NCBI GenBank assembly: GCA_964634855.1
Contig: CAZWKK010000002.1
Coordinates: forward strand, 1 to 28,559
Source of the DNA: an uncultured Anaerolinea sp.
Lineage (GTDB): Bacteria; Chloroflexota; Anaerolineae; Anaerolineales; Anaerolineaceae
Reading direction: 5' to 3'
Length of the DNA stretch: 28,559 nt
Positions 3,001-25,717 of the stretch are shown here, one piece after another. Under the pieces are notes generated by a model, which saw only the letters and a list, made by a program, of their open reading frames with translations, did not search any database and was not told the origin of the DNA. Made by a program: the position numbers and the translations under genes. Numbering within the stretch: position 1 is the stretch's first letter; every line of letters starts with the position of its first letter.

Positions 3001-3862
3001 TGCCCAAAATGACACGGCGAATGCCCTGGCCGCAGTCGAACGTGCCAATTCTGTGAACGAGTTCTCCATCAGCCCCATGTTGCTCAGCAGCAAACTGTAC
3101 CTGGCCAATGGCGAGAAAAAGAAAGCGTTGGAATTCGCTCAAAAAGCAGCCACGCAAGATGCTGCCAATGCAGAAGTTCAATTGCTGCTGGCAAAATCCT
3201 GGTTGGCCAATGGTGACAAATTGCAGGCTTTACAGGCGCTGGAAAAGGCCGTCCATGCCAAGAATACCAGTCTGGAGGTCATGGTGGACCATGCCAAATT
3301 GATCAAAGAGATCAATGGTGCTGCCAATGCCAGACCCTTGTTTGAAGCTTTGGTGCAAAAGTACCCAGAAAATGCCGAGATCTTAAACTTGTTGGCAGAA
3401 GCCCAATTGGCTTGCGGTGATAAATCAGCAGCAGAGTTGAGCGCCCAAAAATCGCTCAAACTTAATGAGGTGCAGCCGAAGATGCAGCAATTCCTGGGAA
3501 AACTGGAATTCGATGGCGGGCATCTGGACCAGGCTATCTTCCACTACAGTCAGGCCATTGCCCAGGCTCCTCAAGAGGTTGAAGTCTATTTGGACCTCAG
3601 TAATGCATATCAGCAACAGCGGGAGTACGAGGAAGCCTTGAAGACCCTGCAAACGGCCATGGATCTGGCACCTCAGGACACACGCGCTATTCTGGCAGCC
3701 GTCAATTTGCTGCGCAATGCCAAAGATTACACTCGTGCCGAAGCTCTCTTGCGCAAGGCAGCCGAAATGGCTCCCAATGATCTCAATATTCGCCGTCAAC
3801 TTGGCGCGGTTATTGCACTGAACATGGTACACAGTTCACAGGAAGCGAGCTCACACGTATGA
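2..3862 (+). CDS. Very large tetratricopeptide-repeat (TPR) protein, 5'-partial (at least 1286 aa)
   Basis: The frame of ORF 47..3862 stays open back to position 2 (ADLIDQFGSAEKTDL-MGY...), so the true start lies left of the window. The protein is A/L/E/Q-rich and helical throughout, with TPR-like units (e.g. ALAIKGFAEYRLGQTDQALHHLSQAVESAP, YWLGKAYLQNGEGEKAIETLEP, LGKLEFDGGHLDQAIFHYSQAIAQAP). No catalytic motif recognised. Confidence 0.88.
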   Translation, partial: ADLIDQFGSAEKTDLMGYAQAAAETNQPVVALDAAQKVLAQEPENGRALAIKGFAEYRLGQTDQALHHLSQAVESAPELPEPWKMLAQVYREKGEIARAIETLRTAHAAVPGNVAILRELTTELIGEGQAAEAYSLLSGDEPKVDGDLQTSLLKIAAMKQLNMADVDSTIEKTYKAFSTQAEAIQEYAALVLRKGEAGKARSLVEPLVLSAQAKTVAKLIYVDSVLGQDYRHILGQPVVEEHLQQKAAQVLDDVISSEPENLYANVLQAEHALRSGESEKAFDLFSNLLNHVEAQGSNWLERIQAGFAWAANLLGKFNYALAGIQSVLEINPNWAGARETLAEVSATSGDIEEAVVQANQVLESASDVAESVEWFADFMGNLGKADEAEKAILTLAQAHEQKLPLFLKLTELQLESGKKDAARQTIEGCKNLLAKSKNESDLIRGAHLFAAVEKEDLAVECLKMRSVLPDAQHQNALLDLAGFYRNNKQYEQALTVLEQAGQFYEDQNWLKLIHAEILHAMGQSEAALSKLAELNDSSELAPEANEMNFVPAIWKSLLKKSTSVDVLAAELAFETGDYSLAAEKVSAAEAMAEKTVLQLEIGHALGKQKDTLSFMDLSADDPSVYVDANLCTEILESLLDAGQNEKAGLMINKAVEIFPQANSLALVEARYLAELGQLVQAEALFDQVLAKVEIKGEINSVEETLVVRNLVKAGMATNRWEEAKAWSDKLYTSQPKSMAAIKIALEVLLLAIEFGKMIAGLRVKKHLNFESTVSDSTIATLKDLISRAERIGTAELEHLVTRAKLAIEANQANIRALAMNTPQKGDVVAMMLALKETGQAATAVQLAKKQIPAADVLYATACCLQDTNPSEALLALKQSMKKNSAQPWASTLAAMLYEKSGQAYAAMSDLNEALEYWPDEPDWQVLAAEYAHENGNQKEAVLHLEQAATLQPEDAQIKYWLGKAYLQNGEGEKAIETLEPISKAGANNYEVWETLAEAYFAQNDTANALAAVERANSVNEFSISPMLLSSKLYLANGEKKKALEFAQKAATQDAANAEVQLLLAKSWLANGDKLQALQALEKAVHAKNTSLEVMVDHAKLIKEINGAANARPLFEALVQKYPENAEILNLLAEAQLACGDKSAAELSAQKSLKLNEVQPKMQQFLGKLEFDGGHLDQAIFHYSQAIAQAPQEVEVYLDLSNAYQQQREYEEALKTLQTAMDLAPQDTRAILAAVNLLRNAKDYTRAEALLRKAAEMAPNDLNIRRQLGAVIALNMVHSSQEASSHV

Positions 3863-6546: not shown

Positions 6547-6561
6547 AATAAGCAAAATGAT

Positions 6562-6591
6562 AAGGCCGCGGTCAAAATCCGCGGTCTTTTT
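6562..6591 (+). terminator. Intrinsic terminator after the TPR/peptidase pair
   Basis: AAGGCCGCGG-TCAAAAT-CCGCGGTCTT stem-loop running into TTTTTGTT, about 15 nt after the TAG at 6546. Confidence 0.8.
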
Positions 6592-6592
6592 G

Positions 6593-6621
6593 TTGCGAGT
6601 GGGCAATCCTTAGAATATAAT
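6593..6621 (+). promoter_or_regulatory. Sigma70-type promoter for alaS
   Basis: TTGCGA (6593-6598), 17 bp spacer, TATAAT (6616-6621); 49 nt upstream of the alaS ATG. Confidence 0.7.
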
Positions 6622-6670
6622 AAGGTCTCTAGATACGAAAGAGCGTCACGATACTTTTGACAGGTGAAAA

Positions 6671-11225: not shown

Positions 11226-12689
11226 TTAGTTATTATCGGGAAGCCAACAGCAGAGCACGAGCTCCTTGGCGGCTTTGACCTCGTCGAGGCGGCCAACTGG
11301 AGTGTCATGCGGGGCGTCTTTGAGCAATTGCGGCTCTGAATGCGCTTCATTGGCGATCTTGAGCAGGGCTTCGGCAAAGAGATCCAGTGTCTGCTTGCTC
11401 TCCGTCTCGGTCGGCTCAATCATGAGCGCTTCATGCACAATGAGTGGGAAGTAGTTCGTGGGCGGATGGAACTTGTAATCCATCAGCCGTTTGGCCACAT
11501 CCAGTGCGTGTACCTCGGGTGCATCCGCCCAACAGCCTTCCAGAACAAACTCGTGCATGCAAACACGTTGGTAGGGAAGCACGAAGGCGCCTTTGAGTTT
11601 GGAGAGAAGATAGTTGGCGTTGAGCACAGCGTATTCAGATATCTTGCGCAGGCCATCCGGCCCGTGCATGCGGATATAGGTGAAGGCGCGAACCATCATA
11701 CCGAACTGGCCGTAGAAAGATTTTACGCGGCCGATGGTATGTTTGGGTTGAATGAACCCGTACATGGGTGGAATTTCGTCTGTACCCTCTTCCGTGATGC
11801 CAACGATTGGGGTAGGCAGGAAATCAGCCAGGTGTTTGGCCACGCCTACAGGTCCGCTGCCGGGACCGCCGCCACCGTGCGGGGTAGAGAAGGTCTTGTG
11901 CAGGTTGAAGTGCATCACATCAATGCCCAGGTCGCCGGGACGGGCAATGCCAAGCAGCGCGTTTAGATTGGCGCCATCGCCATAGACCAGACCGCCACAG
12001 CCATGTACCAGCTTGATGACTTCCAGCACGTTCTCATCGAACAGGCCAAGGGTGTTGGGGTTGGTGAGCATTAACCCAGCAACTGTCTCATCGCAGAGGG
12101 TCTTTAACACAGTCAGATCCACATTACCGCGGGCATCTGAGGGCACGGGTACCACCTCGTAGCCGCTCATGGCAGAGCTGGCCGGGTTGGTGCCGTGCGC
12201 AGAATCGGGGATGAGGATGCGGGTACGTTTTTCATCGCCGCGTGAGCGATGGTAAGCGCGGATAACCATGACCCCAACCAATTCACCCTGAGCGCCGGCA
12301 GCCGGTTCCAGGCAGACAGAGGCAAATCCGCTGATCTCTTTGAGGAATTCCTGCAGGTTATACATCAGCGCCAGGTTGCCTTGCACGGTTTCCACTGGCT
12401 GCAGCGGATGCACCTGGGAGAAGCCTGGAATACGGGCGGTCTCTTCGTTGATCTTGGGGTTGTACTTCATGGTGCAGGAACCCAGGGGATAGAAACCACT
12501 ATCAATGCTGTAATTCAGGCTGGATAGATGGGTAAAATGACGAACCACATCCAGCTCAGAAAGTTCGGGTAAGGGGAGATCTGTACGGACTAAACCTTCT
12601 GGCAGGGCTGTTTCCGGGACATCAGGTTGGGGGAAGCGTACGCCCTGGCGTCCTTTGGAAGAAAGCTCATAAATGGTGAGTTCAGTCAT
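11226..12689 (-). CDS. gcvPB: Glycine dehydrogenase (decarboxylating) subunit 2
   Basis: GFYPLGSCTMKYNPK, AHGTNPASS, LTNPNTLGLF, PLP lysine motif HFNLHKTFSTPHGGGGPG, ALMIEPTETESK. Confidence 0.98.
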   Translation of the reverse strand: MTELTIYELSSKGRQGVRFPQPDVPETALPEGLVRTDLPLPELSELDVVRHFTHLSSLNYSIDSGFYPLGSCTMKYNPKINEETARIPGFSQVHPLQPVETVQGNLALMYNLQEFLKEISGFASVCLEPAAGAQGELVGVMVIRAYHRSRGDEKRTRILIPDSAHGTNPASSAMSGYEVVPVPSDARGNVDLTVLKTLCDETVAGLMLTNPNTLGLFDENVLEVIKLVHGCGGLVYGDGANLNALLGIARPGDLGIDVMHFNLHKTFSTPHGGGGPGSGPVGVAKHLADFLPTPIVGITEEGTDEIPPMYGFIQPKHTIGRVKSFYGQFGMMVRAFTYIRMHGPDGLRKISEYAVLNANYLLSKLKGAFVLPYQRVCMHEFVLEGCWADAPEVHALDVAKRLMDYKFHPPTNYFPLIVHEALMIEPTETESKQTLDLFAEALLKIANEAHSEPQLLKDAPHDTPVGRLDEVKAAKELVLCCWLPDNN

Positions 12690-14034
12690 GCTTCACCTCC
12701 GCAAGAGCTTCTACGAGCGCATCAATTTCTTCACGCCGATTCATTTCTGTCACAGCGATGAGCATGTGATTCTTGAGCGTGGGGAAGTCTTTGCTCAGAT
12801 CATAACCACCCAGGATACCTTCATCCAGGAGTACGTTGTTGATCTGGTTTACAGGGCGTGGGCACTTAACCACAAATTCATGGAAGAAGGGAGTGGTGCC
12901 GACTACCTCAAAACCTGGGAGTTTGGCGATCTCTGCTGCAGCGTAATGCGCTTTCTGATAGCAGAGAGTGGATACCTGTTTGAAGCCAGATTTTCCCAAT
13001 AAGCTGAGGTAGATGGTGGCAGCCAAAGCGATGAGACCCTGGTTTGTGCAGATGTTTGAGGTGGCTTTTTCTCGGCGGATGTGCTGCTCGCGCGCGGTGA
13101 GGGTAAGCACATAGCCTTTGCGGCCTTGTGCATCTACTGTCTCACCCACCAGGCGGCCAGACATTTTGCGCGCATAATCCTTACGGGTAGCGAAAAAGCC
13201 CAGATAAGGCCCACCAAAGGAGAGGGGAATGCCCAAAGGTTGGCCTTCGCCAACCACAACATCAGCGCCAAATTCGCCTGGGGTCTTGAGCAGGCCAAGG
13301 GCAGTGGGGTTGGTGATGACACCCAACAGCGCACCTTTTTCATGCGCTTTGGCAGCGAGTTCGCTCAGATCGTAGACACGACCAAAGAAATCGGGGTATT
13401 GAACCAATACCATCGCGGTGTCTTCGTCAATCTGCGGCAACAGGTCAGTGGGTGCAGCAAAAGGATCTTGCTTGCTGCTGCCAGAGACGATCTGCATGTT
13501 CTCATATCCGCAAAGGTAAGAGCAAAGGACTTCACGGTACTGTGGGTTGATCGCTTCAGAGAGCAAAATCTTGCCCCGTTTACCGCGGAAGTGATGATAA
13601 GCCAAGACGCCAGCTTCAGCAGTCGCCGTAGCGCCGTCGTAATGGCTTGCGTTGGCTACTTCCATGCCCGTGAGGTTGGCGATCAGCGATTGGAATTCAA
13701 AGATCGCCTGCAGGGTTCCCTGCGAGATCTCTGGCTGGTAAGGGGTGTATGCAGTATAGAATTCACCACGGCGTAACAAGCTATCTACGGCCGCAGGCGT
13801 GTAATGATGGTAAGCGCCCGCTCCCAAGAAGCACACCAGATCCTTGACGGACTCATTGGCTAATGCAAATTCTTGCAGCTCAGCCAGCGCTTCCATCTCT
13901 GTGATGCCTTCAGGAAGATCTAATTTGGGGAACCGAAACTTTTCTGGAACATCGGTAAAGAGGTCTTCAATGCGTTTGACCCCGATGCTTTTCAGCATCT
14001 CCTCCGTTTCAATTTCGGTATGGGGGATGAACAT
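12682..14034 (-). CDS. gcvPA: Glycine dehydrogenase (decarboxylating) subunit 1
   Basis: FLGAGAYHHY, EFYTAYTPYQPEISQGTLQAIFEFQ, NASHYDG, GQPLGIPLSFGGPYLG, REQHIRREKATSNICTNQ. 8-nt overlap with gcvPB. Confidence 0.98.
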   Translation of the reverse strand: MFIPHTEIETEEMLKSIGVKRIEDLFTDVPEKFRFPKLDLPEGITEMEALAELQEFALANESVKDLVCFLGAGAYHHYTPAAVDSLLRRGEFYTAYTPYQPEISQGTLQAIFEFQSLIANLTGMEVANASHYDGATATAEAGVLAYHHFRGKRGKILLSEAINPQYREVLCSYLCGYENMQIVSGSSKQDPFAAPTDLLPQIDEDTAMVLVQYPDFFGRVYDLSELAAKAHEKGALLGVITNPTALGLLKTPGEFGADVVVGEGQPLGIPLSFGGPYLGFFATRKDYARKMSGRLVGETVDAQGRKGYVLTLTAREQHIRREKATSNICTNQGLIALAATIYLSLLGKSGFKQVSTLCYQKAHYAAAEIAKLPGFEVVGTTPFFHEFVVKCPRPVNQINNVLLDEGILGGYDLSKDFPTLKNHMLIAVTEMNRREEIDALVEALAEVKHD

Positions 14035-14426
14035 TAGTGGCTCCGCTCTGCGCAGAACTTTTCGTATGCGGCGGCATCCATCAGCGTGTCCAGTTCAGCC
14101 GGGCTGGAAAGTTCAACTTTGAGCATCCAGGCAGCACCGAATGGATCGGAGTTAACGGTTTCTGGAGTGTTGGAGAGGGCATCATTCACGGCAACGACTT
14201 TACCGGATACAGGTGCATTCACATCAGAGGCAGCTTTGACGGATTCAACAGTCGCGATGGTTCCGCCCTTTTTCACAGAATCACCAACGCCAGCGCTGAT
14301 CTCAACGAAAACGACATCAGAGAGCTGATCTTGGGCGAAATCGGAGATACCAATTGTGGCGACATTCCCTTCAACAGAAACCCATTCATCCGTGTTAGCG
14401 TACTTGTAATTAGATTCAAATTTCAT
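14034..14426 (-). CDS. gcvH: Glycine cleavage system H protein
   Basis: IGISDFAQDQLSDVVFVE, lipoyl-Lys motif VESVKAASDV, NSDPFGAAWM. Start placed at 14426 (MKFES) behind GGAGG; TAATG overlap with gcvPA. Confidence 0.98.
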   Translation of the reverse strand: MKFESNYKYANTDEWVSVEGNVATIGISDFAQDQLSDVVFVEISAGVGDSVKKGGTIATVESVKAASDVNAPVSGKVVAVNDALSNTPETVNSDPFGAAWMLKVELSSPAELDTLMDAAAYEKFCAERSH

Positions 14427-14451
14427 TGTTTCCTCCAGAATAATTTTGATT

Positions 14452-14486
14452 AAAGAAAAAGGACGCAAAACAATTTTGCGTCCTCT
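14452..14486 (-). terminator. Attenuator terminator (expression platform of the glycine riboswitch)
   Basis: Minus strand GGACGCAAAA-TTG-TTTTGCGTCC followed by TTTTTCTTT, between the second aptamer and the gcvH RBS. Confidence 0.85.
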
Positions 14487-14650
14487 GTGATCGACCTGAG
14501 AGATTCACCAGTTACCTGGTTTGCCCCTTCGGTGAAATTACACTTTCCAGAGTTTGGAAAAAAACCGGGGTCCTTTTTGCCTGAGAGATTCACCAGTTTT
14601 GCTGGTTTGCCCCTTCGGCGTCTGAGCATTCAGATCTCTTCCTCGGTTTT
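14483..14650 (-). ncRNA. Tandem glycine riboswitch (two aptamers)
   Basis: Minus strand GGAAGAGA...CGCCGAAGGGGCAA...AATCTCTCAGGCAAAAAGGAC, linker, CTCTGGAAAG...CACCGAAGGGGCAA...AATCTCTCAGG...ACAGAG. Matches the known tandem glycine aptamer pattern and lies directly upstream of gcvH. Confidence 0.95.
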
Positions 14651-14670
14651 CTTTGTTCTTTTGTAGATTC

Positions 14671-14699
14671 ATTCTAAGAATAGCTACCCAAAATGTCAA
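14671..14699 (-). promoter_or_regulatory. Sigma70-type promoter of the riboswitch-gcv transcript
   Basis: Minus strand TTGACA, 17 bp spacer, TAGAAT; predicted start about 14 nt before aptamer 1. Confidence 0.8.
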
Positions 14700-14726
14700 G
14701 ATAAATGGCTAATAAATCAGAGCAAT

Positions 14727-16001
14727 CTACGCGACGATTTTCTTGTGAGACAGTCTTTGTTTGAGGGTGGGCCAAAGGAAGAGGAAGAAGCCGAGCAAGC
14801 GGAAGGCAGCAGAGATCATCAGACCTACGCCTAAGCCGTACGAGTCGCCAATTGTTGTACCGATGACAGGGGCAAACACTGAGGAAAGGTACTGGATGCT
14901 CTGTGCGAAAGACACGAAAATGGCCGAATATCCAACAGGTACCGTTCGCATCAACTCATCAAAGAATACCAGGTCCAGGCCAGCCTGGAAAATACCCGCC
15001 ATGCCAGCAAATGCGGTGATCTGCAAGGTTGAATGACTGAACGACATGGCCAACGGGTACAGTGCCACACCCAGAGACGTCCAGATGAGTACTTTGGAGG
15101 GGCCATGTTTTCTTGATTGACGGGTCCAGACAAAATAGCCCACCACCAGGACGGCGGTTTGCACTGTGTTGATGATGGAGATCCAGCCATCACTGGCATG
15201 CACCACTCTGACCAGGTAAAGCGGAATCAGCGGAGCAGCCAAAGCTGTACCGGTCAGGAAAATAAACCGTTTGATGATAAAAGATAGGTACGGTTTTTCA
15301 GAGAGGATCAGGTCTTTATACTCTTTTACCTGTTCTGTAAAAGCGCGTTTGCCATAAGATAGACCTTGAGGTGTAGAGAATGGAATTCTGATGTGACTTG
15401 AATAGGTATAACTGATGAGCCCACCCAGTGAAAGTACAATGAACATGATCTGGTAATTGAGGGGGAAGACAACCCTGTCCAACAATTGACCAATTGCAAG
15501 GACACAAATGGTGGTGGTGATGCCCAATACCGACCAGCGGCGTGTCATTAACTCAAAGCGGCCGGAAGGACCAGCCACAGCATTCATCACCACAGAGAAG
15601 GTGATGGCTACGACCGTTTGTGGAATAGTGGCCAAAGCCCAAATGGCGAGAATAGCAATTACCACTGCCCGGTCTGGCAAGAGGAAAGAGGCAAACCCCG
15701 TCAACGCGTAACAGGCGATCACCATCAATCTGGCGATGCTGAACCAACGAACGATGTTAGGTTGTCGTTGTAAAAACCGTCCGAGTGGGATTGAAAGGAT
15801 CAACCCGGTGATGGCCGGCATAGAGGAGAGCAGGCCTACCTGGAAACTGCTGGCGTTTAAATGGGTCAAGAAAACAGGTAAGAAAGGAGATGCGGCATTT
15901 GCCAAACCGACGCCGATTGCATCGATCTGCACATTTGAATAATTCTTTCTCTCTGTTTCGGATAAATTTGCAGGTAGACTAAAGTTTCTTAATAATTTCA
16001 C
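14727..16001 (-). CDS. MFS transporter
   Basis: 424 aa, roughly 12 hydrophobic segments in two halves, GRFLQRQP loop after TM2. GTG start with a weak RBS; extended -10 TGGTATAAT (minus strand) at 16031-16039. Substrate unknown. Confidence 0.88.
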   Translation of the reverse strand: MKLLRNFSLPANLSETERKNYSNVQIDAIGVGLANAASPFLPVFLTHLNASSFQVGLLSSMPAITGLILSIPLGRFLQRQPNIVRWFSIARLMVIACYALTGFASFLLPDRAVVIAILAIWALATIPQTVVAITFSVVMNAVAGPSGRFELMTRRWSVLGITTTICVLAIGQLLDRVVFPLNYQIMFIVLSLGGLISYTYSSHIRIPFSTPQGLSYGKRAFTEQVKEYKDLILSEKPYLSFIIKRFIFLTGTALAAPLIPLYLVRVVHASDGWISIINTVQTAVLVVGYFVWTRQSRKHGPSKVLIWTSLGVALYPLAMSFSHSTLQITAFAGMAGIFQAGLDLVFFDELMRTVPVGYSAIFVSFAQSIQYLSSVFAPVIGTTIGDSYGLGVGLMISAAFRLLGFFLFLWPTLKQRLSHKKIVA

Positions 16002-16048
16002 ATAAAGATTCTGGGTTCAATGATTTGATTATTATACCAAGGGTGTGT

Positions 16049-16675
16049 TTATGGATTAATCAACACATCTGTCACGAGCATGGAGTTACATCCAGAGTCT
16101 TTCCACATGCCCAGGTAGTTACCTTCTTTGGAGTAGGCTTTTAGCTCATAGATCTCCCAACCTTTGATGATGACATGATCACCAACTTTGATCTTGAGCA
16201 ACTTGGTTTGAATGTCCTGATTCATCGGCACTGTGTGCAGCAGGTTGATGGTTCCTGAAGGAGAGTTCTCTGTGTTACTGTTCCAGTAGAAGTGATGATC
16301 CTCAACATTGGTCGAGACAAGGCGGCGGTCTGAATAATCGCCTGTGGTGACCAGAATATCCGAGGCGAGGATGGGAAAAACCAATTCATGGTCGTTATTG
16401 TAGTGCCGTACCAGACCATCGAAAACGCGATCATGATCTGCTTCATATAAAAGCGAAAAGAAGCTACCATCCGGCAGGGCGATTGAATGAAACCCGTTGG
16501 TGACGATCATGGTATCAAAATCTTCAAGGGGAGCTACGCCCACTTCTGCGCGGAAGAGGTAGATACCAGCAAAGACCAGGATGGCAAATATGAGGACCAG
16601 AATAGGCGTCCAGATCAGCGAAAGATAGGTCCTTCGTTTGATCTCTGAATTACGCCTTGGATAGAGAAAGTTCAT
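16049..16675 (-). CDS. Hypothetical protein with one N-terminal transmembrane anchor
   Basis: Start placed at 16675 (MNFLYP), downstream of the promoter at 16710-16738. Basic N-terminus (RRNSEIKRR), hydrophobic LIWTPILVLIFAILVFAGIYLF, then a soluble beta-rich domain. Confidence 0.7.
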   Translation of the reverse strand: MNFLYPRRNSEIKRRTYLSLIWTPILVLIFAILVFAGIYLFRAEVGVAPLEDFDTMIVTNGFHSIALPDGSFFSLLYEADHDRVFDGLVRHYNNDHELVFPILASDILVTTGDYSDRRLVSTNVEDHHFYWNSNTENSPSGTINLLHTVPMNQDIQTKLLKIKVGDHVIIKGWEIYELKAYSKEGNYLGMWKDSGCNSMLVTDVLINP

Positions 16676-16709
16676 ACAATCGCCTACTGTAGAATCCCTG
16701 AATAATTCG

Positions 16710-16738
16710 AGTATAATAGCAAAAGTATTGACGTTCAA
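16710..16738 (-). promoter_or_regulatory. Sigma70-type promoter for the hypothetical membrane protein
   Basis: Minus strand TTGAAC (16738-16733), 17 bp spacer, TATACT (16715-16710). Confidence 0.6.
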
Positions 16739-16783
16739 GCGAAGGAGGTGTTAAGCGAGTTTTCAGTCTTAAGTGGAAAGCCA

Positions 16784-16911
16784 AGCGCATGGCCTAGATC
16801 ATATTTCTAGGTGACGAGGATGAGGGTTCTTCACCGCAAGGTGAGGCTAACCGGGAAGACCGGGAAAATCGACAGATCAGCGGAAGCCCTTCAGGTGGCA
16901 AACAGCCCCTG
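16784..16911 (+). ncRNA. glmS (GlcN6P-activated) ribozyme, structural variant; predicted cleavage between A16784 and G16785
   Basis: A/GCGC...GG, P1 CCTAGA/TCTAGG, TGACGAGG, P2 TGAGGGTT/AGCCCTTCA, ATCGA, TCAGCGG, P3 GGTGGC-AAACA-GCCCC, all in the canonical order upstream of glmS. There is a 39-nt insertion at 16829-16867. Confidence 0.88.
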
Positions 16912-17022
16912 CACTTTCCAACATTTTCAATCAAATCATTCACCTAAATCCTGCCCGGGAACCCTGGCAGGGACGCTCTGCCTGTATATACAGGAAGGGT
17001 GTATTTGAAACATGGAGGATAC

Positions 17023-18864
17023 ATGTGTGGAATTGTTGGTTACATTGGTGAGCAAGACGCTACTCCAATCATTTTAAAAGGCTTGAAACGGCTTGAATAC
17101 CGAGGTTATGATTCTGCAGGGATCGCCGTATTAACTAACGGACATATCGAAGTTCGTCGTGATGCCGGCAAATTGGGCAATTTGGAAGCACTGGTCGAAC
17201 AAAACCCGATCAAAGGACGGGTAGGGATTGGCCATACCCGTTGGGCTACCCATGGCGAACCGACCGCACGAAATGCACACCCACATATGGGGGCGACCGG
17301 CAAGGTTGTGGTGGTGCACAACGGAATTGTCGAGAATTTCATTGAGCTTAAAGAAGAATTGAGTCAGGACGGCGCTGTTTTCCAATCGGATACCGATACT
17401 GAGACCATTGTATTGTTGGTGGAAAAGTACATGAAAACTGGGCTTGGCCTGGAAGCTGCTGCCCGTAAAACACTGGCCCGCCTTAAGGGTGCTCATGGCG
17501 TAGTGCTCTTCTCTTCTCAGGAACCAGATAAGATCGTGGCAGCACGCATTGGCAATGCCGGCGGAGTTGTATTAGGCCTTGGCGAAGGAGAGAACTTCAT
17601 TGCCTCCGATATTCCGGCCATTATGGAACATACCCGCAAATTGATCTTTTTAGAATCACGCCAGATGGCTGTGGTGACCCGCCAGGGCATTACCCTTTCT
17701 ACCATTGAAGGAACGCCGATCGAGGCGAAGATCTCTACTGTAGCCTGGGACCCTGTGGCTGCAGAAAAAGGCAACTACCGCCACTTTATGCAAAAAGAGA
17801 TCCACGAGCAGGTCAGGGCTTTGAACGATACTCTGGCTGGTCGGGTGGATTTTGAAGACGGCAGCATTCGTTTGCCCCAATTAAAACTGGATGCTGAAAA
17901 TGCCAAACAATTCAATCGCATCGTCATTACTGCCTGCGGTACGGCATGGCACGCTGGTATGGTAGGACGAATCTTGTTGGAACGTATTGCCAGAATTCCG
18001 ACCAGCGTGGAAATTGCCTCTGAATTCCGCTATGCTGATCCGCTGGTGGATGAGCACACCATTGCCATGGCCATCAGCCAGTCGGGTGAAACAGCCGATA
18101 CCCTGGCAGCCATGGATGAAGCCCGCAAGCATGGGGCAAAACTTTGGTCCATCGTCAATGCCATTGGTTCTCAGGCCATGCGCATTGCGGATGGGTATAT
18201 TTCCATGCAGACCGGGCCGGAGATCGGCGTGGCCTCTACCAAGGCCTTTACAGCCCCTCTGGTGGACCAATACATGTTAGCCATCCTTTTGGGTGAGCTT
18301 CGCGGAACGGTCAGCTTGGAAAAACGCAAAGAACTGGTCAACGACCTGCGCCTGGTGCCAGAATTGGTGGGTCAATGCCTGGACCGTGAAGGGGAGGTAG
18401 AGAAGATCGCTGCGGTATTGAAAGATACCAAAGATATGCTCTACCTGGGTCGCGGCATTAATATGCCCATCGCCTATGAAGGCGCTCTCAAACTTAAAGA
18501 GATCTCTTATATTCATGCAGAAGCCTACCCGGCTGGTGAAATGAAACATGGGCCGATCGCTCTGGTGGATAAAGATATGCCAGTCTTGGCCATTGCCACT
18601 GAGGATATGTGGCATGAGAAGATGATCAGCCAGATCGAGCAGGCCAAAGCACGGGGTGGCGTGGTGGTTGCGGTTGCCACTGAAGGCGACGAACGTATTG
18701 CCAGACTGGTGGACCATGTTTTGTGGGTACCCAAGACCCCCTGGCTGCTCAGCCCGGTAGTCAATGTGATCCCGCTGCAGATCCTAGCCTATCACATTGC
18801 CTGTCAACGTGGGTTGGATGTTGACCAGCCGCGAAATTTGGCAAAATCAGTAACGGTCGAATAA
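17023..18864 (+). CDS. glmS: Glutamine--fructose-6-phosphate transaminase (isomerizing)
   Basis: Start placed at 17023 (MCGIVG, catalytic Cys) behind GGAGG. RGYDSAG, GHTRWATHG, SQSGETADT, GVASTKAF, MKHGP, C-terminal RNLAKSVTVE. Confidence 0.99.
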   Translation: MCGIVGYIGEQDATPIILKGLKRLEYRGYDSAGIAVLTNGHIEVRRDAGKLGNLEALVEQNPIKGRVGIGHTRWATHGEPTARNAHPHMGATGKVVVVHNGIVENFIELKEELSQDGAVFQSDTDTETIVLLVEKYMKTGLGLEAAARKTLARLKGAHGVVLFSSQEPDKIVAARIGNAGGVVLGLGEGENFIASDIPAIMEHTRKLIFLESRQMAVVTRQGITLSTIEGTPIEAKISTVAWDPVAAEKGNYRHFMQKEIHEQVRALNDTLAGRVDFEDGSIRLPQLKLDAENAKQFNRIVITACGTAWHAGMVGRILLERIARIPTSVEIASEFRYADPLVDEHTIAMAISQSGETADTLAAMDEARKHGAKLWSIVNAIGSQAMRIADGYISMQTGPEIGVASTKAFTAPLVDQYMLAILLGELRGTVSLEKRKELVNDLRLVPELVGQCLDREGEVEKIAAVLKDTKDMLYLGRGINMPIAYEGALKLKEISYIHAEAYPAGEMKHGPIALVDKDMPVLAIATEDMWHEKMISQIEQAKARGGVVVAVATEGDERIARLVDHVLWVPKTPWLLSPVVNVIPLQILAYHIACQRGLDVDQPRNLAKSVTVE

Positions 18865-18883
18865 GGATCTACGCATAAATACC

Positions 18884-18917
18884 AAAGAGCTGAGAGGAAA
18901 ACCTCACAGCTCTTTTT
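18884..18917 (+). terminator. glmS terminator, overlapping the last codons of the convergent regulator gene
   Basis: AAAGAGCTG-A-GAGG-AAAA-CCTC-A-CAGCTCTTT followed by TT. The regulator's stop codon (18904-18906) lies inside the stem. Confidence 0.75.
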
Positions 18918-19407
18918 GGATTTTGGCAATGATGTCTTTTGCCAGGTTGGCATCCAGGAAATCAGTTTCGGTGAGGGAGATCAACGGACCATCTGGACCA
19001 GCGATCCATTTAGCCTCAATTCCTTTGGTGTGTAAAAAGGCTACTGCCTGATTCAATTTTGCGGTGGGGTGACCAGTTGGAGCGAAATCTGCGAGGATAG
19101 AATCAGCAATTTGGACAGTGAGTTCTTCTTCTGAGAGGCCGAGAGAGTGAAGCAAATGGGTCTGGGATTGGACAAGGGTCTGCACCCAGGTTCGATTCAA
19201 AGGGCGGATAGCCTGATAAGCATGGGCTGGCCGTCCCACCTGATTTGTAGATGTCAGTGTTTTGACCACACGCCCTTCGCTGATCAACTCGTTCAGGTGA
19301 TGGCGGATATCTGCGCGGGTGAGATGAAGCATGCGGCTCAATTGGGGGATGGTGAGGGGGCCTTTTTGAATGAGTGTTTCAAAGATCAATTCAGCGGGTT
19401 TTGACAT
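18904..19407 (-). CDS. Winged-HTH transcriptional regulator (ArsR/SufR-like N-terminus)
   Basis: LTIPQLSRMLHLTRADIRHHLNELISEGRV...VGRPAHAY matches the HTH plus GRPxxxY wing of SufR-like proteins. Start placed at 19407 (MSKPAE); the ORF track extends to a TTG at 19428. Confidence 0.8.
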   Translation of the reverse strand: MSKPAELIFETLIQKGPLTIPQLSRMLHLTRADIRHHLNELISEGRVVKTLTSTNQVGRPAHAYQAIRPLNRTWVQTLVQSQTHLLHSLGLSEEELTVQIADSILADFAPTGHPTAKLNQAVAFLHTKGIEAKWIAGPDGPLISLTETDFLDANLAKDIIAKIQKEL

Positions 19408-19440
19408 TTTATACCCGATTCTTCCCAATTAATTAAGATA

Positions 19441-19506
19441 ATAATTATTATGTTAATTATAACCTTGACTTTGAATTAATCAAAGATAAAATGAATCTAA
19501 ATTAGA
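19441..19506. promoter_or_regulatory. Overlapping divergent promoters with palindromic candidate operators
   Basis: Plus strand TTGACT (19465-70), 16 bp, TAAAAT (19487-92). Minus strand TTGATT (19483-78), 16 bp, TATAAT (19461-56). Palindromes CTTTGA-ATTAA-TCAAAG (19469-85), ATAATTA-N6-TAATTAT (19441-60) and TCTAA-A-TTAGA (19496-19506). Confidence 0.6.
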
Positions 19507-19527
19507 GAATTATTTGGAGGTGCCGCA

Positions 19528-20187
19528 GTGGCAAGACCAAATTTGAACAAAGAAGGCGTTGATATCCCCGCCGAGATGCAAGGGCAGGTGGCAGTGACCA
19601 CTCTGGACCGTGTCTACAATTGGAGCCGTGAAAATTCCATGTGGCCCATGATGTTTGGCTTGGCCTGTTGCGCCATTGAAATGATCGCGACTGCCGCCAG
19701 CCGTTATGATCTGGCCCGATTTGGCATGGAAGTGATGCGACCCAGTCCCAGGCAAGCTGACGTGATGATCGTGTCTGGTACGGTCACCAAAAAGATGGTG
19801 CCTCAGATTGTCCGTCTGTATAACCAAATGGCTGAGCCACGTTACGTCATCGCCATGGGCGCCTGCGCTTCTGGCGGTGGCCTCTTCAAAGATGGCTATA
19901 ACGTGGTTCCTGGCGTTGATAAGTTCATCCCCGTTGATGTTTACATTGCTGGCTGTCCTCCAACTCCTCAAGCGCTTCTCAATGGGCTGATAACTTTGCA
20001 AAAGAAAGTGGAACGGGAATCCATTAAGACCTCCAAGTGGTATCAGAAAGGCCCCTCAGAGCCCATCCCTGTGCCGGTATTAGGCCCAGACCTGATGTCA
20101 CCCGATCAATACCACTTGATCTGCCAGTTGACCCATGCACCAGAACCAGTAGTACAACCTGAAATCGGGGAGGAAACCCATGCCTGA
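19528..20187 (+). CDS. nuoB: NADH-quinone oxidoreductase subunit B homologue
   Basis: GTG start behind [19 protein letters not shown] (tandem Cys of cluster N2), [31 protein letters not shown]. Confidence 0.95.
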
Positions 20188-21928
20188 GTTTGATCTGTCA
20201 GCGAAAGTGATGGCGGGTTTGGAAGCAAAGCACCCCGGGTTGGTAAACCACGATGATCGTCCAGGTTTTGGCGGTGGGATCGTGGAAGCTGCCCATCTAC
20301 TAGAAGTAGTGAAAACATTACACGATGACCTTGGCTATGATTTTCTCTCATCGGTCACCGCGGCAGATGATTACCCGGAAGACAAATTGGAAGTCATTTA
20401 CCACCTGTTCAAATCCAGCGGTGGTAATGGCCTTTCACTGAAAGTGTTCACTCCAAGAGATGGGGCTCACGTTCCATCTTTGGTTAGCCTCTACCCGGGT
20501 GCTGAATTACAGGAGCGAGAGGTATATGACCTGTACGGCATTCGCTTTGATGGTCATCCTGACCTGCGCCGTATCTTGTTGTGGGAGGGCTTTGCTGGTT
20601 ACCCCTTGCGAAAGGATTGGAAAGAACCTTTTTACGAAGAGGATGTGAAGCCGTTTAAATCCCGCTGGCCAGAAGGTAAAAGTGAGTGGATCGAAAATAA
20701 AAATCCTTACGGCGGGAATGTTCAGTATCCGCGTGAGTTTGAACCAGAAAAGTGGATCCCTGAACATGAAGATCTGCTGTATAAAGGGCTTTCTCATGGT
20801 GATGAACACAGCAGTGAGGAATTAAAGACCGATCAGTTGGTGGTAAACCTTGGACCTCAACATCCCTCCACCCATGGTGTTTTCCGTATGGTGGCGGTGT
20901 TGGAGGGAGAGACGGTTGTGGATGTCAAACCGGTCATGGGGTATCTACATCGTAATCATGAAAAGATCGGTGAGCGGAATACTTATTTACAGATCATGCC
21001 ATATACTGACCGGCTGGATTACATCTCCTCCATGAGCAATAATTTTGGTTATGCCCTCACAGTGGAAAAACTGATGGGCATCAAACCGCCAGAACGTGCC
21101 GATTACATTCGGGTGATGATGGCTGAGCTGACGCGTATCGAAAGTCACATCATGTCCATTGGCTTTCTGCTCAATGATCTGGGCGCTTACTTCACGCCTG
21201 CCTTGTACTCTTTGGAAGAGCGCGAACTGATCTTGGATATCTTTGAAGCTGTATCTGGCTCGCGAATGATGTGTAATTACTTCCGCTTTGGCGGGGTAGT
21301 GCGTGATGTGAGTGAAGAAATTCTCAAAAAGGTGAAAGACCTGGTGGAGAACCGGTTGCCCAAGAAAGTGGATGATCTGGACCGCTACCTTTCTGGAAAC
21401 GAAATCGTTCGGGCCAGAACCGAAGGCGTTGGGGTCATCACTGGCGAGCAGGCAATTGCCCTCAGCATTACCGGCCCAATTTTACGGGCGTCTGGCATTC
21501 CGTACGATATCCGGCGCGCCGATCCTTATAGTATTTATGAGCGTTTTGACTTTGATGTGATCATCGGTCAACATGGTGATATTTTTGATCGCTATAAAGT
21601 GAGACTTGACGAGATCCGTCAGAGCATCCGCATCTTGCAGCAAGTATTGCAACAAATGCCTAAAGAAGGTCCTGTCATGACAGGCAAATTGCAGTATCAG
21701 GTACGTGTTCCTGCTGGTGAGGCATACGGCCGGGTGGAAGGGCCGAAAGGTGAACTGGGCTTTTATGTTGTCTCAGATGGAAAACCGAACCCGAAACGGT
21801 ATCATGTGCGCGCCCCATCGTTCATCAATTTGACTGGTCTGGCAGCAATGGGCCGGGGCGAAAAAGTGGCCGATCTTGTGGCTGTATTGGGCTCAATTGA
21901 TATTGTGTTGGGCGAAGTAGATCGATAG
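20180..21928 (+). CDS. nuoCD: Fused NADH-quinone oxidoreductase subunit C/D homologue
   Basis: C domain: [30 protein letters not shown] domain: [41 protein letters not shown]. No Ni-binding CxxC motifs. Confidence 0.95.
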
Positions 21929-21940
21929 GCTGGAGGAAGC

Positions 21941-22540
21941 ATGAAGGGTTCAGGAATCATCAAAGGACTGGGTGTCACATTCAAGCACTTCTTTGATACC
22001 TATTTGGTCGATGCCCGTGAGGGCAAGAAACGTTATAACAATGAAAAGGGGATTGAATCAAGGACATCTGCAGATGTCTCTGGGTTCTTTACAGTGCAAT
22101 ACCCTGAAGAACAAATGCCTGTGCCAGAAGAATTTCGCTTTTTACCCTTCCTTGTTTACGAACATGATGAAGCTGGCGAAAAAAAGTATCGCTGCACTGC
22201 ATGCGGAATCTGCTCCAAAGTTTGCCCGCCGCAATGTATTTGGATCACCCGCAAGACAGATCCTGTCACTGGGAAACCGATCCCGCAGCCGGAGAGTTAT
22301 CAGATCGATACAGATATTTGTATGAACTGCGGCCTCTGTGTGGAATACTGCCCGTTTGATGCAATCAAAATGGATCATGATTTTGAATTATCTTCCTATG
22401 ATCGCCAGAATGGTGCTCATATTTACGATAAAGAGAAACTTGGTAAACCGGTTGAATATTATGCTAAAATTCGACCAGTGAATTTTGCCCGCGAAGAAGC
22501 TGCAAAAAAGGCTAAAGCGGGGGCAGCTAATCCTGTTTGA
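21941..22540 (+). CDS. nuoI: NADH-quinone oxidoreductase subunit I homologue (2x[4Fe-4S])
   Basis: GLGVTFKHF, TVQYPEE, CTACGICSKVCP, IDTDICMNCGLCVEYCPFDAI. Confidence 0.9.
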   Translation: MKGSGIIKGLGVTFKHFFDTYLVDAREGKKRYNNEKGIESRTSADVSGFFTVQYPEEQMPVPEEFRFLPFLVYEHDEAGEKKYRCTACGICSKVCPPQCIWITRKTDPVTGKPIPQPESYQIDTDICMNCGLCVEYCPFDAIKMDHDFELSSYDRQNGAHIYDKEKLGKPVEYYAKIRPVNFAREEAAKKAKAGAANPV

Positions 22541-22549
22541 TGAAAGCGG

Positions 22550-22882
22550 GTGATCATGTTCAACTCAGATACTGAATTATTTTTCCCAATTCGGGTCATT
22601 CCGAACCTTGCCGATATACGCGGTAAACAATGGGAAGAATTGATCCAGCATTTGAGCTCAGCAGAAGCAACTGAGGCTGAGCAGATCGCATTTACTGACC
22701 TGGTGGTTCACTTGGCCGGATGTGCGGGCTGTGATGCTGACTCCTTCCGCGCAATGCGGGGTTGTACTCAGTGTGCGCGGCTGGTGATCCGTAGATTCAA
22801 AGGGACCGATCAGGAATTATTGGACCAGTATCATCAGTGCCAGGCAGAAGTAAATGAGTTTCTGCAAAAACGTACTGGATGA
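22550..22882 (+). CDS. Small hypothetical protein with CxxC-x10-CxxC motif (putative metal/Fe-S binding)
   Basis: 110 aa, fills the gap between nuoI (9 nt) and mrp (16 nt). CAGCDADSFRAMRGCTQC at 22721-22774. Start is GTG 22550 or ATG 22556. Confidence 0.75.
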   Translation: MIMFNSDTELFFPIRVIPNLADIRGKQWEELIQHLSSAEATEAEQIAFTDLVVHLAGCAGCDADSFRAMRGCTQCARLVIRRFKGTDQELLDQYHQCQAEVNEFLQKRTG

Positions 22883-22898
22883 TCAAAAGGAAAGATCA

Positions 22899-23954
22899 AT
22901 GATCTCATCGAAGGATGTATTAGGTGCATTGGGTACCGTTATGGAACCTGAACTGCACAAAGATCTGGTTACACTCAACATGGTCGAGAATGTGACCATT
23001 GAAGGCGGGAAAGTTCGTTTTAAAGTGATCCTCACCACGCCTGCCTGTCCGCTACGCGGGAAGATCGAACACGAGGCCAAAGAAGCCGTCATGAAACTGG
23101 ACGGTGTCAAAGAAGTGGTCGTGGATATGGACGCCAAGGTCATGTCGGATGGCAAAGTCCGCGAACTGCTTACATTGCCTATTCATAATGTGGTGGCGGT
23201 CGCTTCTGGTAAGGGCGGTGTGGGAAAATCGACCGTGGCGGTTAACCTGGCAGTGGCTTTAGCTCAAAAAGGAGCCAGGGTTGGTTTGCTTGATGCTGAT
23301 ATCTATGGTCCAAACATTCCCACCATGATGGGCGTGGATCATTTACCTGCACCCAAAGAGAACCGCTTGCAACCGGCTGTCTCTCACGGCGTTAAGATGA
23401 TGTCTATTGGCTTTATGGTACGACCTGGCCAACCGCTTATCTGGCGTGGTCCGATGCTTCATACGGCCATCCGGCAATTCCTGGCCGATGTAGAGTGGGG
23501 TGAGTTGGATTACTTGATCGTGGATATGCCGCCTGGAACCGGAGATGCACAATTAAGTTTGATGCAGTCGGTGAACCTGAGCGGTGGGGTCATAGTTACA
23601 TTGCCCCAGCAAGTTTCAATTGATGATGCCAGTAGGGGGCTTTCAATGTTCCGTGAAATGAAAGTGCCTGTTCTGGGTATAATTGAGAACATGAGCTATC
23701 TGGAAATGCCAGATGGCACCAAGATGGATATCTTCGGTCAGGGCGGCGGTGCCGAACTGGCCAGAGCTACGAAATCACCCTTCCTGGGAGAGATCCCCAT
23801 GGAACCGGATGTCCGCATCGGCGGCGATTCGGGTAAACCAATCGTCATGGCAAGACCTGAATCAAAAGCGGCCAAGGCGCTGGTGGAGATCACCGAAAAA
23901 TTGGCTGCCCAGATCAGTATTGCCGCATTCGCTGCCAGGGCAGAAAACAACTAG
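22899..23954 (+). CDS. mrp: Mrp/ApbC/NBP35-family P-loop ATPase with N-terminal DUF59 domain
   Basis: Start placed at 22899 (MISSKD) behind AAGGA. EPELHKDLVTLNMV...LTTPACP, SGKGGVGKST, DADIYGP, WRGP, DMPPGTGD, ENMS. The CxxC that usually follows ENMS is absent. Confidence 0.93.
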   Translation: MISSKDVLGALGTVMEPELHKDLVTLNMVENVTIEGGKVRFKVILTTPACPLRGKIEHEAKEAVMKLDGVKEVVVDMDAKVMSDGKVRELLTLPIHNVVAVASGKGGVGKSTVAVNLAVALAQKGARVGLLDADIYGPNIPTMMGVDHLPAPKENRLQPAVSHGVKMMSIGFMVRPGQPLIWRGPMLHTAIRQFLADVEWGELDYLIVDMPPGTGDAQLSLMQSVNLSGGVIVTLPQQVSIDDASRGLSMFREMKVPVLGIIENMSYLEMPDGTKMDIFGQGGGAELARATKSPFLGEIPMEPDVRIGGDSGKPIVMARPESKAAKALVEITEKLAAQISIAAFAARAENN

Positions 23955-23970
23955 AGAGAGAGTTAGTCTC

Positions 23971-24900
23971 ATGGATAGTGTCAGTACTCCTATTATCGTT
24001 GGAGTCCGATTTAGCAAAGTCGGCAAGATCTACCATTTTGATGCCTCCAAGATCGAAAATTTCCGCAAAGGGGATGTGGTGATCGTCGAAACCAGCCGTG
24101 GCTGGCAGCTTGGCGAGATCGTAGTACCCAAAGTGGAAGATGCTACTCCGCCGCCAGAAGGTGCCTGGAAATTGATCGATCGTCTGGCCACGCCGCGTGA
24201 CCTGTTGCAACGCCAATCGTGGCAGGCAAAAGAGCCCGAAGTGACTGTGGCAGCCCGAGAGCGAGCCAAAGAGCTACGGCTGAACGGGATCAAGATCATC
24301 TTCGCTGAATACAGCTATGATGGTGCAAGACTTTCCATTTTCTTCAGTTCCGATTCAGAAGATAAAGCGGAATTGAAATCTTTACGTTCCGATATGCAAC
24401 GTATCTATGGACCCGCCCAGGTGGATTTGCGCCAGATTGGCCCACGTGATGTGGCCAAATATCTCGGCGGCATGGGTGCCTGCGGTATGGAAACCCGTTG
24501 CTGTTCCATGTTCATCACCGAATTCAGTTCCATCTCCATTCGTATGGCCAAAGAACAGGGCATTTCATTGACGCCGACCGAGATCACCGGTATGTGTGGC
24601 AGATTGCGCTGTTGTTTGATCTACGAATACGAAACTTATGTTGAAGCCAAAAAGAACCTTCCCAAGAAAAATAAACGGGTTATCACGCCCAAGGGTGAAG
24701 GAAAAGTGGTTGATCTCATGCCCTTGCGTAATGGCGTGATCGTAGAATTACAGGACCTTGGACGGATCGAGTTCAAGTTGGAAGAGCTCAAGCCGGCTGA
24801 AGAATATGAAGCATTTGTGCATAAGGCCGAGAATCCGAGTTGCGCCAGTTCTTCTGGCGGCAGTGGAACAGGATGTTCTCGTTGCCAGAAGAGGCAATAA
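23971..24900 (+). CDS. PSP1 / RicT (YaaT)-family protein
   Basis: Start placed at 23971 (MDSVST). VGVRFSKVGKIYHF, VIVETSRG, DLRQIGPRDVAKYLGGMGACGMETRCC, SIRMAKEQ, ITGMCGRLRCCLIYE. Confidence 0.9.
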   Translation: MDSVSTPIIVGVRFSKVGKIYHFDASKIENFRKGDVVIVETSRGWQLGEIVVPKVEDATPPPEGAWKLIDRLATPRDLLQRQSWQAKEPEVTVAARERAKELRLNGIKIIFAEYSYDGARLSIFFSSDSEDKAELKSLRSDMQRIYGPAQVDLRQIGPRDVAKYLGGMGACGMETRCCSMFITEFSSISIRMAKEQGISLTPTEITGMCGRLRCCLIYEYETYVEAKKNLPKKNKRVITPKGEGKVVDLMPLRNGVIVELQDLGRIEFKLEELKPAEEYEAFVHKAENPSCASSSGGSGTGCSRCQKRQ

Positions 24901-25629
24901 ATGGTTTTTGAACCTGAAGGATGGAATGAAGGAAAGAAAATTCTGGTAATTCTGGCTCATCCAGATGACCCAGAATTTTTTTGCGGTGCTACTTTGGCCA
25001 GGTGGAGCCAACTTGGGCATGAAGTACGCTATTGTTTGCTGACAAAAGGCCAGAAAGGCGCCCCCGATCTAAAACGCAGCCCAGAAGAACTGGCAGCTTT
25101 ACGTGTGGTTGAACAAAAGGCAGCCGCAGCTACCCTGGGGGTGCGATCTGTTGAGTTTTTGGACTATGTGGATGGAGAAGTATTCCCAGATCTGGAAATG
25201 CGCAAAAAGATCGTGCGTGTCATCCGTCGCTGGAGACCTGAGATCCTTGTTAGCAGTGACCCGCTGAATCTGTTCCCCACGGATACCCGAATCAACCACC
25301 CAGATCACCGCGCGGCAGGGCAGGCAGTGGTTGATGCTGCGTTCCCGGCAGTGGGGAACCCGATGTTCTACCCGGAATTGATCTCACAAGAGGGGTTACA
25401 GCCTCACTCTGTTGATGAAATTTGGCTTTCGGCAACGGCTCATCCGAATTTTTACATGGATGTTACACAGCAATTTGAGGCTAAACTGGCTGCCATTCAT
25501 TGCCACAAGTCTCAGATCAATATGCCTCTTGAGAAATTCGACGCTATGATGCGGCAGCGTTTGATAAAAAACGATGAAACCGGAATGGAAGTCTATAAAG
25601 AGCAGTTTAAACGCATCAAATTTGGTTAA
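24901..25629 (+). CDS. PIG-L/LmbE-family zinc deacetylase
   Basis: LAHPDDPEF, LTKGQKG, HPDHRAAG, KLAAIHCHKSQ. The ATG directly abuts the upstream TAA. Confidence 0.92.
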   Translation: MVFEPEGWNEGKKILVILAHPDDPEFFCGATLARWSQLGHEVRYCLLTKGQKGAPDLKRSPEELAALRVVEQKAAAATLGVRSVEFLDYVDGEVFPDLEMRKKIVRVIRRWRPEILVSSDPLNLFPTDTRINHPDHRAAGQAVVDAAFPAVGNPMFYPELISQEGLQPHSVDEIWLSATAHPNFYMDVTQQFEAKLAAIHCHKSQINMPLEKFDAMMRQRLIKNDETGMEVYKEQFKRIKFG

Positions 25630-25679: not shown

Positions 25680-25714
25680 ATAACAGGCTTGAAATCCTAT
25701 TTCAAGCCTGTTAT
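25680..25714. repeat. Perfect 16-bp inverted repeat (probable terminator of the nuo-mrp operon) overlapping the GntR promoter
   Basis: ATAACAGGCTTGAAAT-CCT-ATTTCAAGCCTGTTAT. The following U-tract is weak. Confidence 0.75.
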
Positions 25715-25717
25715 AAT
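25689..25717 (+). promoter_or_regulatory. Sigma70-type promoter for the GntR-OFOR operon
   Basis: TTGAAA (25689-94), 17 bp spacer, TATAAT (25712-17), with TG extended -10 at 25709-10. Confidence 0.78.

Follow-up and report, generated by a model that had tools for sequence, protein, structure and literature searches.

The best described counterpart of the genes considered here is the '2M' complex I of Chloroflexi. A detached nuoBCDI cluster, a fused nuoCD gene and a second nuoM were described for this phylum by Chadwick et al. 2018 (ISME J 12:2668), as relayed in PMC7117926, and the latter work found the same split on two contigs of a metagenome-assembled genome (MAG). A lengthened NuoL, the second NuoM and a proposed connection to ferredoxin are summarised for this enzyme in PMC6606698. 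The present analysis deals with a nuoB-nuoCD-nuoI operon from an uncultured Anaerolinea sp. (Chloroflexota, Anaerolineaceae), located in a stretch of 28,559 nucleotides, hereafter the window, which is contig C2 (CAZWKK010000002.1) of a sludge MAG of 2.34 Mb in 416 contigs, 81% complete (GCA_964634855.1). Near-identical DNA is present in many sludge metagenomes. We consider it highly likely that this operon encodes the quinone (Q) module, or head, of a membrane-bound '2M' complex I devoid of the NADH (N) module NuoEFG, and that the matching membrane arm, nuoA-H-J-K-L-M-M-N, is encoded at a second locus, on contig C32 of the same MAG. Both the Q-module identity and the pairing with this orphan arm are shown by comparative genomics of the predicted proteins.

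The likeness to the Chloroflexi enzyme, as it is summarised in these two sources, is extensive. The nuoBCDI genes are detached, nuoCD is fused, a second nuoM stands between nuoL and nuoN, NuoL reaches 726 residues versus 658, and nuoEFG is missing from both loci; no difference was seen in the core. Every defining '2M' feature that could be tested is found here, and the nuoB-CD-I arrangement is already known for Chloroflexi. The Cys4 protein encoded by orf110, an Mrp protein without its CxxC motif, RicT and a split version with a single nuoM in genus g240 are present in our data and not mentioned in the summaries given by PMC7117926 and PMC6606698. As regards the operon proteins, the fresh points are limited to orf110, the CxxC-less Mrp and the terminal extensions of NuoB and NuoI.

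The three head proteins keep the residues expected of complex I. In NuoB, the ligands of cluster N2 are present in GLACCAIEM (with the tandem Cys), GACASGGG and AGCPP, and C48, C113 and C143 are invariant in an alignment with conventional and hydrogenase-type paralogues. In NuoCD, GPQHPSTHG, which carries the quinone-site His residues in the β1–β2 loop, is identical to that of Thermus thermophilus Nqo4, and TDRLDY aligns with TPRMDY of the same protein, at the quinone-site Tyr. No Ni-ligand Cys was found in NuoCD, the C-terminus of which reads ...LGEVDR. The initial annotation, made from the letters of the window, had pointed to these His, Tyr and tandem Cys residues and to the missing Ni ligands, in full agreement with the translations and with the alignment to Nqo4. 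NuoI has two CxxCxxCxxxCP motifs, CTACGICSKVCP and CMNCGLCVEYCP. Its TIGR01971 score (94.6 bits) is below the cut-off of 113, so its membership rests on these motifs, on the alignment to conventional NuoI and on the gene context. Compared by alignment with the conventional paralogues, NuoB is longer at its C-terminus by a conserved stretch of about 50 residues, and NuoI at its N-terminus by about 34. The closest solved chains to NuoCD are those of complex I NuoCD/Nqo4 (E 1e-102 to 1e-104); the scores against Mbh, the Mbh-like 6u8y complex and FHL range from 1e-44 to 1e-59. In established complex I structures, the quinone-site His/His/Tyr residues face a chamber that is completed by NuoH, so that their retention makes sense only if a NuoH is available.

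No such subunit is encoded nearby. There is no nuoA upstream of nuoB, only a 99-nt spacer followed by a divergent regulator gene; nuoB and nuoCD overlap by 8 nt, and the 12 nt separating nuoCD from nuoI leave no place for nuoH. None of the operon proteins contains a 19-residue window reaching 1.6 on the Kyte-Doolittle scale, when NuoA, NuoH, NuoJ and NuoK used as controls contain 25–85 windows at or above this value. The layout described in the initial annotation, with nuoB directly behind its promoter, no nuoA, no nuoH and no membrane protein in the operon, is thus reproduced by the open reading frame coordinates, the spacer and the hydropathy scan. Two outcomes had been envisaged from it: a soluble ferredoxin-linked oxidoreductase with a new acceptor, or a separately regulated head docked on a membrane arm encoded elsewhere.

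The content of the MAG bears directly on this choice. Family searches returned four NuoD-like regions, five NuoH-family regions and nine antiporter-like matches, which were resolved by Pfam and by tblastn against two annotated clusters of Anaerolinea thermolimosa. Contig C32 carries the C-terminal end of NuoH followed directly by nuoJ, nuoK, nuoL, two nuoM and nuoN, with no nuoI. Its antiporter-like genes give four PF00361 matches in the order L(726)-M(510)-M(448)-N(478). The C32 genes are 47–71% identical to A. thermolimosa nuoA-H-J-K-L-M-M-N, versus 41–44% to the conventional genes of that species, with 66–71% for L/M/M against L/M1/M2. NuoL of the A. thermolimosa 2M arm, with 729 residues, is of nearly the same length as the C32 protein, and that of the conventional complex is the 658-residue form. 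In A. thermolimosa, the 2M locus (L110) consists of A-H-J-K-L-M-M-N only, with no B/C/D between nuoA and nuoH and no nuoI between nuoH and nuoJ, and the conventional operon (L111) is a full set of 14 genes, with B, C, D and I among them. Next to the 2M arm, on its downstream side, this species has an ATP synthase a-subunit gene (L110 18347–19411).

A conventional complex I is encoded in the MAG as well. The nuoA gene and the beginning of nuoB lie on contig C23 (68% and 87% identical to A. thermolimosa), and contig C150 contains nuoD-E-F-G-H (54–71% identical). Since the conventional complex has its own nuoA-B and its own nuoD-E-F-G-H, the head in the window is not its missing piece. The initial annotation had reasoned that a single nuoA/H/J-N cluster elsewhere, without any other copy of B/C/D/I, would mean one conventional complex encoded in a split locus. 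The first half of this picture stands, as a cluster of that type without its own B/C/D/I does exist; the second does not, as the MAG additionally encodes a conventional nuo cluster, nuoB and nuoD included. The genome search that it had recommended, for nuo membrane genes, a second NuoB or NuoD and quinone genes, thus yielded the C32 arm, the conventional genes on C23 and C150, and MenA. Other complex I-like genes were encountered during these searches: contigs C219 and C131 bear two clusters resembling group 4 hydrogenases, with NuoB/C/D/H-like genes and an antiporter-like gene, and on contig C314 a NuoH-like gene adjoins a HycI protease gene. A PF01058 gene on contig C231 was considered as the conventional nuoB and rejected, this gene encoding the small subunit of a soluble [NiFe] hydrogenase beside a formate/nitrite transporter.

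The same partition is seen in the relatives. The closest homologues of NuoCD, at about 70% identity, come from Anaerolinea, Thermanaerothrix, Longilinea, Bellilinea and Levilinea, and the gene order nuoB-nuoCD-nuoI-(orf110)-(mrp)-ricT-(pigL)-(gntR-oorA) is kept in 80 of 80 related loci, none of which has a membrane nuo gene in its 8-kb flanks. Five closed or near-closed relatives each have one NuoD beside NuoH, from the conventional complex, together with one fused NuoCD remote from any NuoH and one NuoH remote from any NuoD. In the complete relatives, one full 14-gene nuo operon is accompanied by a single A-H-J-K-L-M-M-N arm and a single B-CD-I head, both orphans. The presence of both parts was then surveyed in 121 genomes of the order, using E<=1e-180 for the fused NuoCD and E<=1e-150 for the long NuoL. 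Both were detected in 94 genomes and neither in 11, the latter falling in three families (f1, f83 and f88); eight genomes have the fused NuoCD without the long NuoL, and another eight the reverse. All 16 discordant genomes are MAGs of 63–97% completeness. In a phylum-wide sample, the two parts are likewise both present or both absent within the order of the window, and contiguous arrangements are found in other classes.

The two loci come closer to each other in a few genomes. In G409 (L115, C30:1-20000), the head, nuoB...ricT, occupies 2205–7711 and the 2M arm, nuoA...N, 11377–19913 on the same strand, 3.7 kb apart, which may be an intermediate or ancestral arrangement. Head and arm are about 8 kb apart in G429 and G454. 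These two genomes provide the loci of genus g240 (L116, G429:C3:344000-363999, and L117, G454:C12:9000-28999), where the split version has a single nuoM (A-H-J-K-L-M-N), with nuoB-CD-I located about 8 kb downstream of it in the same orientation. G429 (5 contigs, 96% complete) and G442 encode no NuoD homologue besides the fused NuoCD and no NuoH besides that of the orphan arm, so that the two loci must form one enzyme there, or none.

A stand-alone soluble NuoB/CD/I enzyme, passing electrons from ferredoxin to a soluble acceptor other than quinone, appears most improbable against this background. It would account for the lack of a membrane protein in the operon, for a promoter-like site and a divergent regulator of its own, for extensions of NuoB and NuoI that the conventional paralogues do not have, and for the eight of 121 genomes with a head and no detected long NuoL. 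Those eight are however incomplete MAGs, and an orphan arm without B/C/D/I accompanies the head in this genome and in 94 of the 102 head-bearing genomes. The strict conservation of the quinone-site His/His/Tyr, the joint loss of head and arm in three families, and the arms of G429 and G442, which would be headless if the fused-NuoCD head did not serve them, all argue in the same direction. The soluble oxidoreductase proposed initially thus finds no support, and the separate head docked on an arm encoded elsewhere is supported by the headless arm on C32, by joint gain and loss, and by the sole NuoD and NuoH of G429 and G442. When Anaerolineae genomes are annotated, a nuoB-CD-I cluster free of membrane genes should not be mistaken for a novel soluble enzyme but matched with the nuoA-H-J-K-L-M-M-N locus of that genome.

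Docking could also be imagined on the other arm, the head being then a separately regulated isoform of the Q module that swaps onto the conventional complex I rather than onto the 2M arm. A conventional complex I is indeed encoded in this genome and in most relatives, and the divergent regulator makes separate regulation plausible. In the conventional operon, however, nuoA and nuoJ already enclose a set of B, C, D and I genes, and it is the 2M arm that has none. Genome G135, in which conventional NuoG is present, lacks both the head and the 2M arm, so the conventional complex was retained when these two parts were lost, and the converse situation, head and arm without conventional NuoG, is met in the 17 genomes described below. 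The swap is hardly credible on these grounds.

In the assembled '2M' enzyme, NuoB, NuoCD and NuoI would be seated on NuoA and NuoH. From the two clusters of NuoI, electrons would reach N2 in NuoB and, finally, menaquinone in the chamber formed by NuoCD and NuoH, and this transfer would drive proton translocation through NuoL, the two NuoM and NuoN, or the reaction could run in reverse. Menaquinone can be made, since this MAG and four cultured relatives all encode a MenA that scores above cut-off; a search of the same five genomes for PF02621, a marker of the futalosine pathway, returned nothing. The cultured organisms carrying the gene set belong to Anaerolinea, Levilinea, Bellilinea and Longilinea. 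At the Levilinea locus (L058), menA (around 4290–5120) lies about 2 kb upstream of nuoB.

The electron donor is more difficult to assign. We infer a ferredoxin-type carrier rather than NADH oxidised through NuoEFG. A ferredoxin link is the usual hypothesis for 2M enzymes, in the summary of PMC6606698. A 2-oxoacid:ferredoxin oxidoreductase gene is located a few kb downstream in most related loci, which is weak evidence for the donor, being synteny within one order. The split 2M complex could alternatively be NADH-dependent and borrow NuoEFG from the conventional operon, an unlikely solution in our opinion. Conventional NuoG is indeed encoded in 77 of the 94 genomes having both parts, and the Q module is nearest to NADH-type complex I sequences; yet in the remaining 17 carriers, out of 121 genomes, head and arm occur without a conventional NuoG at E<=1e-100, so that borrowed NuoEFG is not required. 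A second complex-I-type NuoD is likewise missing from three of these 17 genomes (G429, G442 and G458) and present in another of them, G406. The ferredoxin hypothesis of the literature, as summarised in PMC6606698, also speaks against NADH.

Several points weigh against the pairing of this head with a 2M arm, or at least against the function deduced from it. Neither the NuoA nor the N-terminal portion of the NuoH of the 2M type could be retrieved from the 81%-complete MAG. Some of the 16 discordant genomes may truly have a head and no arm, and the relatives are not independent, so that the counts overstate the support and are taken as consistent support, not as a statistic. The backing for an assembled head-on-2M-arm complex in Anaerolineae is of a comparative nature, and the donor is purely inferred. 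The RNA-library contigs on the operon described below are few and short, may be DNA carry-over and are uninformative on operon structure. Lastly, the cultured Anaerolinea, Levilinea, Bellilinea and Longilinea are known as strict fermenters, in which the role of a quinone-linked proton pump is puzzling. The biological questions raised are which donor serves a complex I with extra pumping and no N module in fermenters, and why its head is grouped with Fe-S carrier genes.

The operon indeed runs past nuoI, with orf110, mrp, ricT and pigL following on the same strand (Table 1). The four Cys of the orf110 protein are invariant across 41–68 orthologues, and its predicted fold is all-helical (AF2 pLDDT 80.5). 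No family match was found in Pfam or NCBIfam, and the Atlas returned only unnamed Chloroflexota clusters. Foldseek gave no match below E=2 against the PDB and only the protein's own family against AFDB, one member of which is automatically named CMD/AhpD-like, a match too weak to use. Mrp lacks the usual C-terminal CxxC: the corresponding site reads ENMSYLEMPDG, and its only Cys are at positions 4 and 65. The gene shares the operon with the genes of three Fe-S subunits of complex I and with ricT. The orf110 protein, this Mrp/NUBPL-type carrier and RicT presumably help to load the three [4Fe-4S] clusters of the head. It is conceivable, though rather doubtful, that orf110, the CxxC-less Mrp and RicT constitute a dedicated maturation system or an electron-input adaptor for a complex I head without N module. 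For example, orf110 could supply the cluster-bridging Cys missing from Mrp, or could be a new ferredoxin-docking accessory subunit.

Other well-characterised enzymes resemble the system in part. Cyanobacterial and plastid NDH-1 and the Fpo-like 11-subunit enzymes also combine a Q module and a membrane arm without NuoEFG, and NdhH of NDH-1 is close to NuoCD (6hum_H, E 3e-96). The electron donor of NDH-1 is ferredoxin. These 11-subunit enzymes differ from the window system in gene order and in the extra NuoM found here; no donor-docking subunit of the NdhS/V/O type was identified, no search for docking subunits having been made. Group 4 membrane-bound [NiFe] hydrogenases and their Mbx/Ehr-type relatives have homologous NuoB/C/D/I-like modules, but the head in the window has neither Ni-ligand Cys nor a membrane gene in its operon and does not belong with them. 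The tandem CC of N2 in NuoB also contrasts with SCNGCD in the hydrogenase-type small subunit, and NuoCD matches Mbh and FHL much less well than it does complex I. The best PDB matches are the complex I structures of Escherichia coli and Aquifex aeolicus (7awt, 7p61, 7q5y), with a fused NuoCD of about 580–600 residues as here. The nuo genes of both species, unlike those of the window, form contiguous operons, and NuoEFG is part of the E. coli enzyme.

Table 1. Features of the head operon and its upstream region (window coordinates).
Feature	Coordinates	Strand	Remarks
Divergent ArsR/Lrs14-like winged-helix regulator gene	18904-19428	-	PF01022/PF13412; NCBIfam Sta1/Lrs14/SufR-like matches
Promoter region, AT-rich 99-nt spacer	19429-19527	+	TTGACT-16-TAAAAT at 19465-19492; GGAGG at 19516-19520; GTG start of nuoB (consensus scan)
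nuoB	19528-20187	+	219 aa; PF01058 1.4e-29; NCBIfam NuoB subfamily 248 bits
Fused nuoCD	20180-21928	+	582 aa; PF00329 + PF00346; TIGR01962 NuoD 465.7 bits, above cut-off
nuoI-type 2x[4Fe-4S] gene	21941-22540	+	199 aa; Fer4 families; TIGR01971 3e-27
orf110, Cys4 protein	22550-22882	+	110 aa; C58-x2-C61-x10-C72-x2-C75; between nuoI and mrp in 67 of 80 Anaerolineales loci
mrp/apbC, NUBPL/Ind1-type P-loop Fe-S carrier with DUF59	22854-23954	+	PF10609 1.5e-98; PF01883; ApbC 298 bits, below 348 cut-off
ricT/yaaT (PSP1 domain)	23960-24900	+	NF041131 RicT 3.5e-53, residues 121-335 of the long open reading frame; downstream of mrp in related loci too
PIG-L family deacetylase gene (pigL)	24901-25629	+	PF02585 1.2e-30; final gene before the strong hairpin

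The ArsR/Lrs14-like protein is a candidate regulator of the nuoB operon; a weakly similar regulator (25–34% identity) occupies the same divergent position in about 35 of the 80 related loci. The TTGACT-16-TAAAAT site is a pattern match, in a region where promoter-like matches are as frequent as expected from shuffling. Although the longest open reading frame of ricT opens at 23713, its true start is probably located after the mrp stop codon. The sole strong terminator-like hairpin of the region, with a 16-bp stem (ATAACAGGCTTGAAAT...), lies 3' of pigL at 25680–25714. Taken as a whole, the promoter and terminator scans do not rise above shuffle level, and the limits of the operon are therefore tentative. 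This hairpin shares part of its sequence with TTGAAA-17-TATAAT (25689–25717), the region's best promoter-like match, and the 25680–25717 segment precedes the genes of a GntR-type regulator and of 2-oxoacid:ferredoxin oxidoreductase. The locus is found in two sludge runs labelled 'RNA-Seq' that are probably DNA; in two genuine RNA libraries, only a few contigs of 151–322 nt match nuoB, nuoCD, mrp and ricT, which is compatible with expression without demonstrating it.

Within the family of the window organism, seven of nine sampled relatives have no NuoD-type match (NuoCD query, E<=1e-20), no 2M-type NuoL and no conventional NuoG. These genomes (G081, G153, G189, G207, G247, G271 and G399) are 96–99% complete, with sizes of 2.0–2.8 Mb, and complex I as a whole seems to have disappeared from their lineages. 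At the other end of the window, upstream of alaS, two very large tandem genes on the plus strand (47–6546) encode proteins of 1271 and 895 residues; the former is rich in TPR repeats, and the latter shows weak N-terminal TPR matches only.

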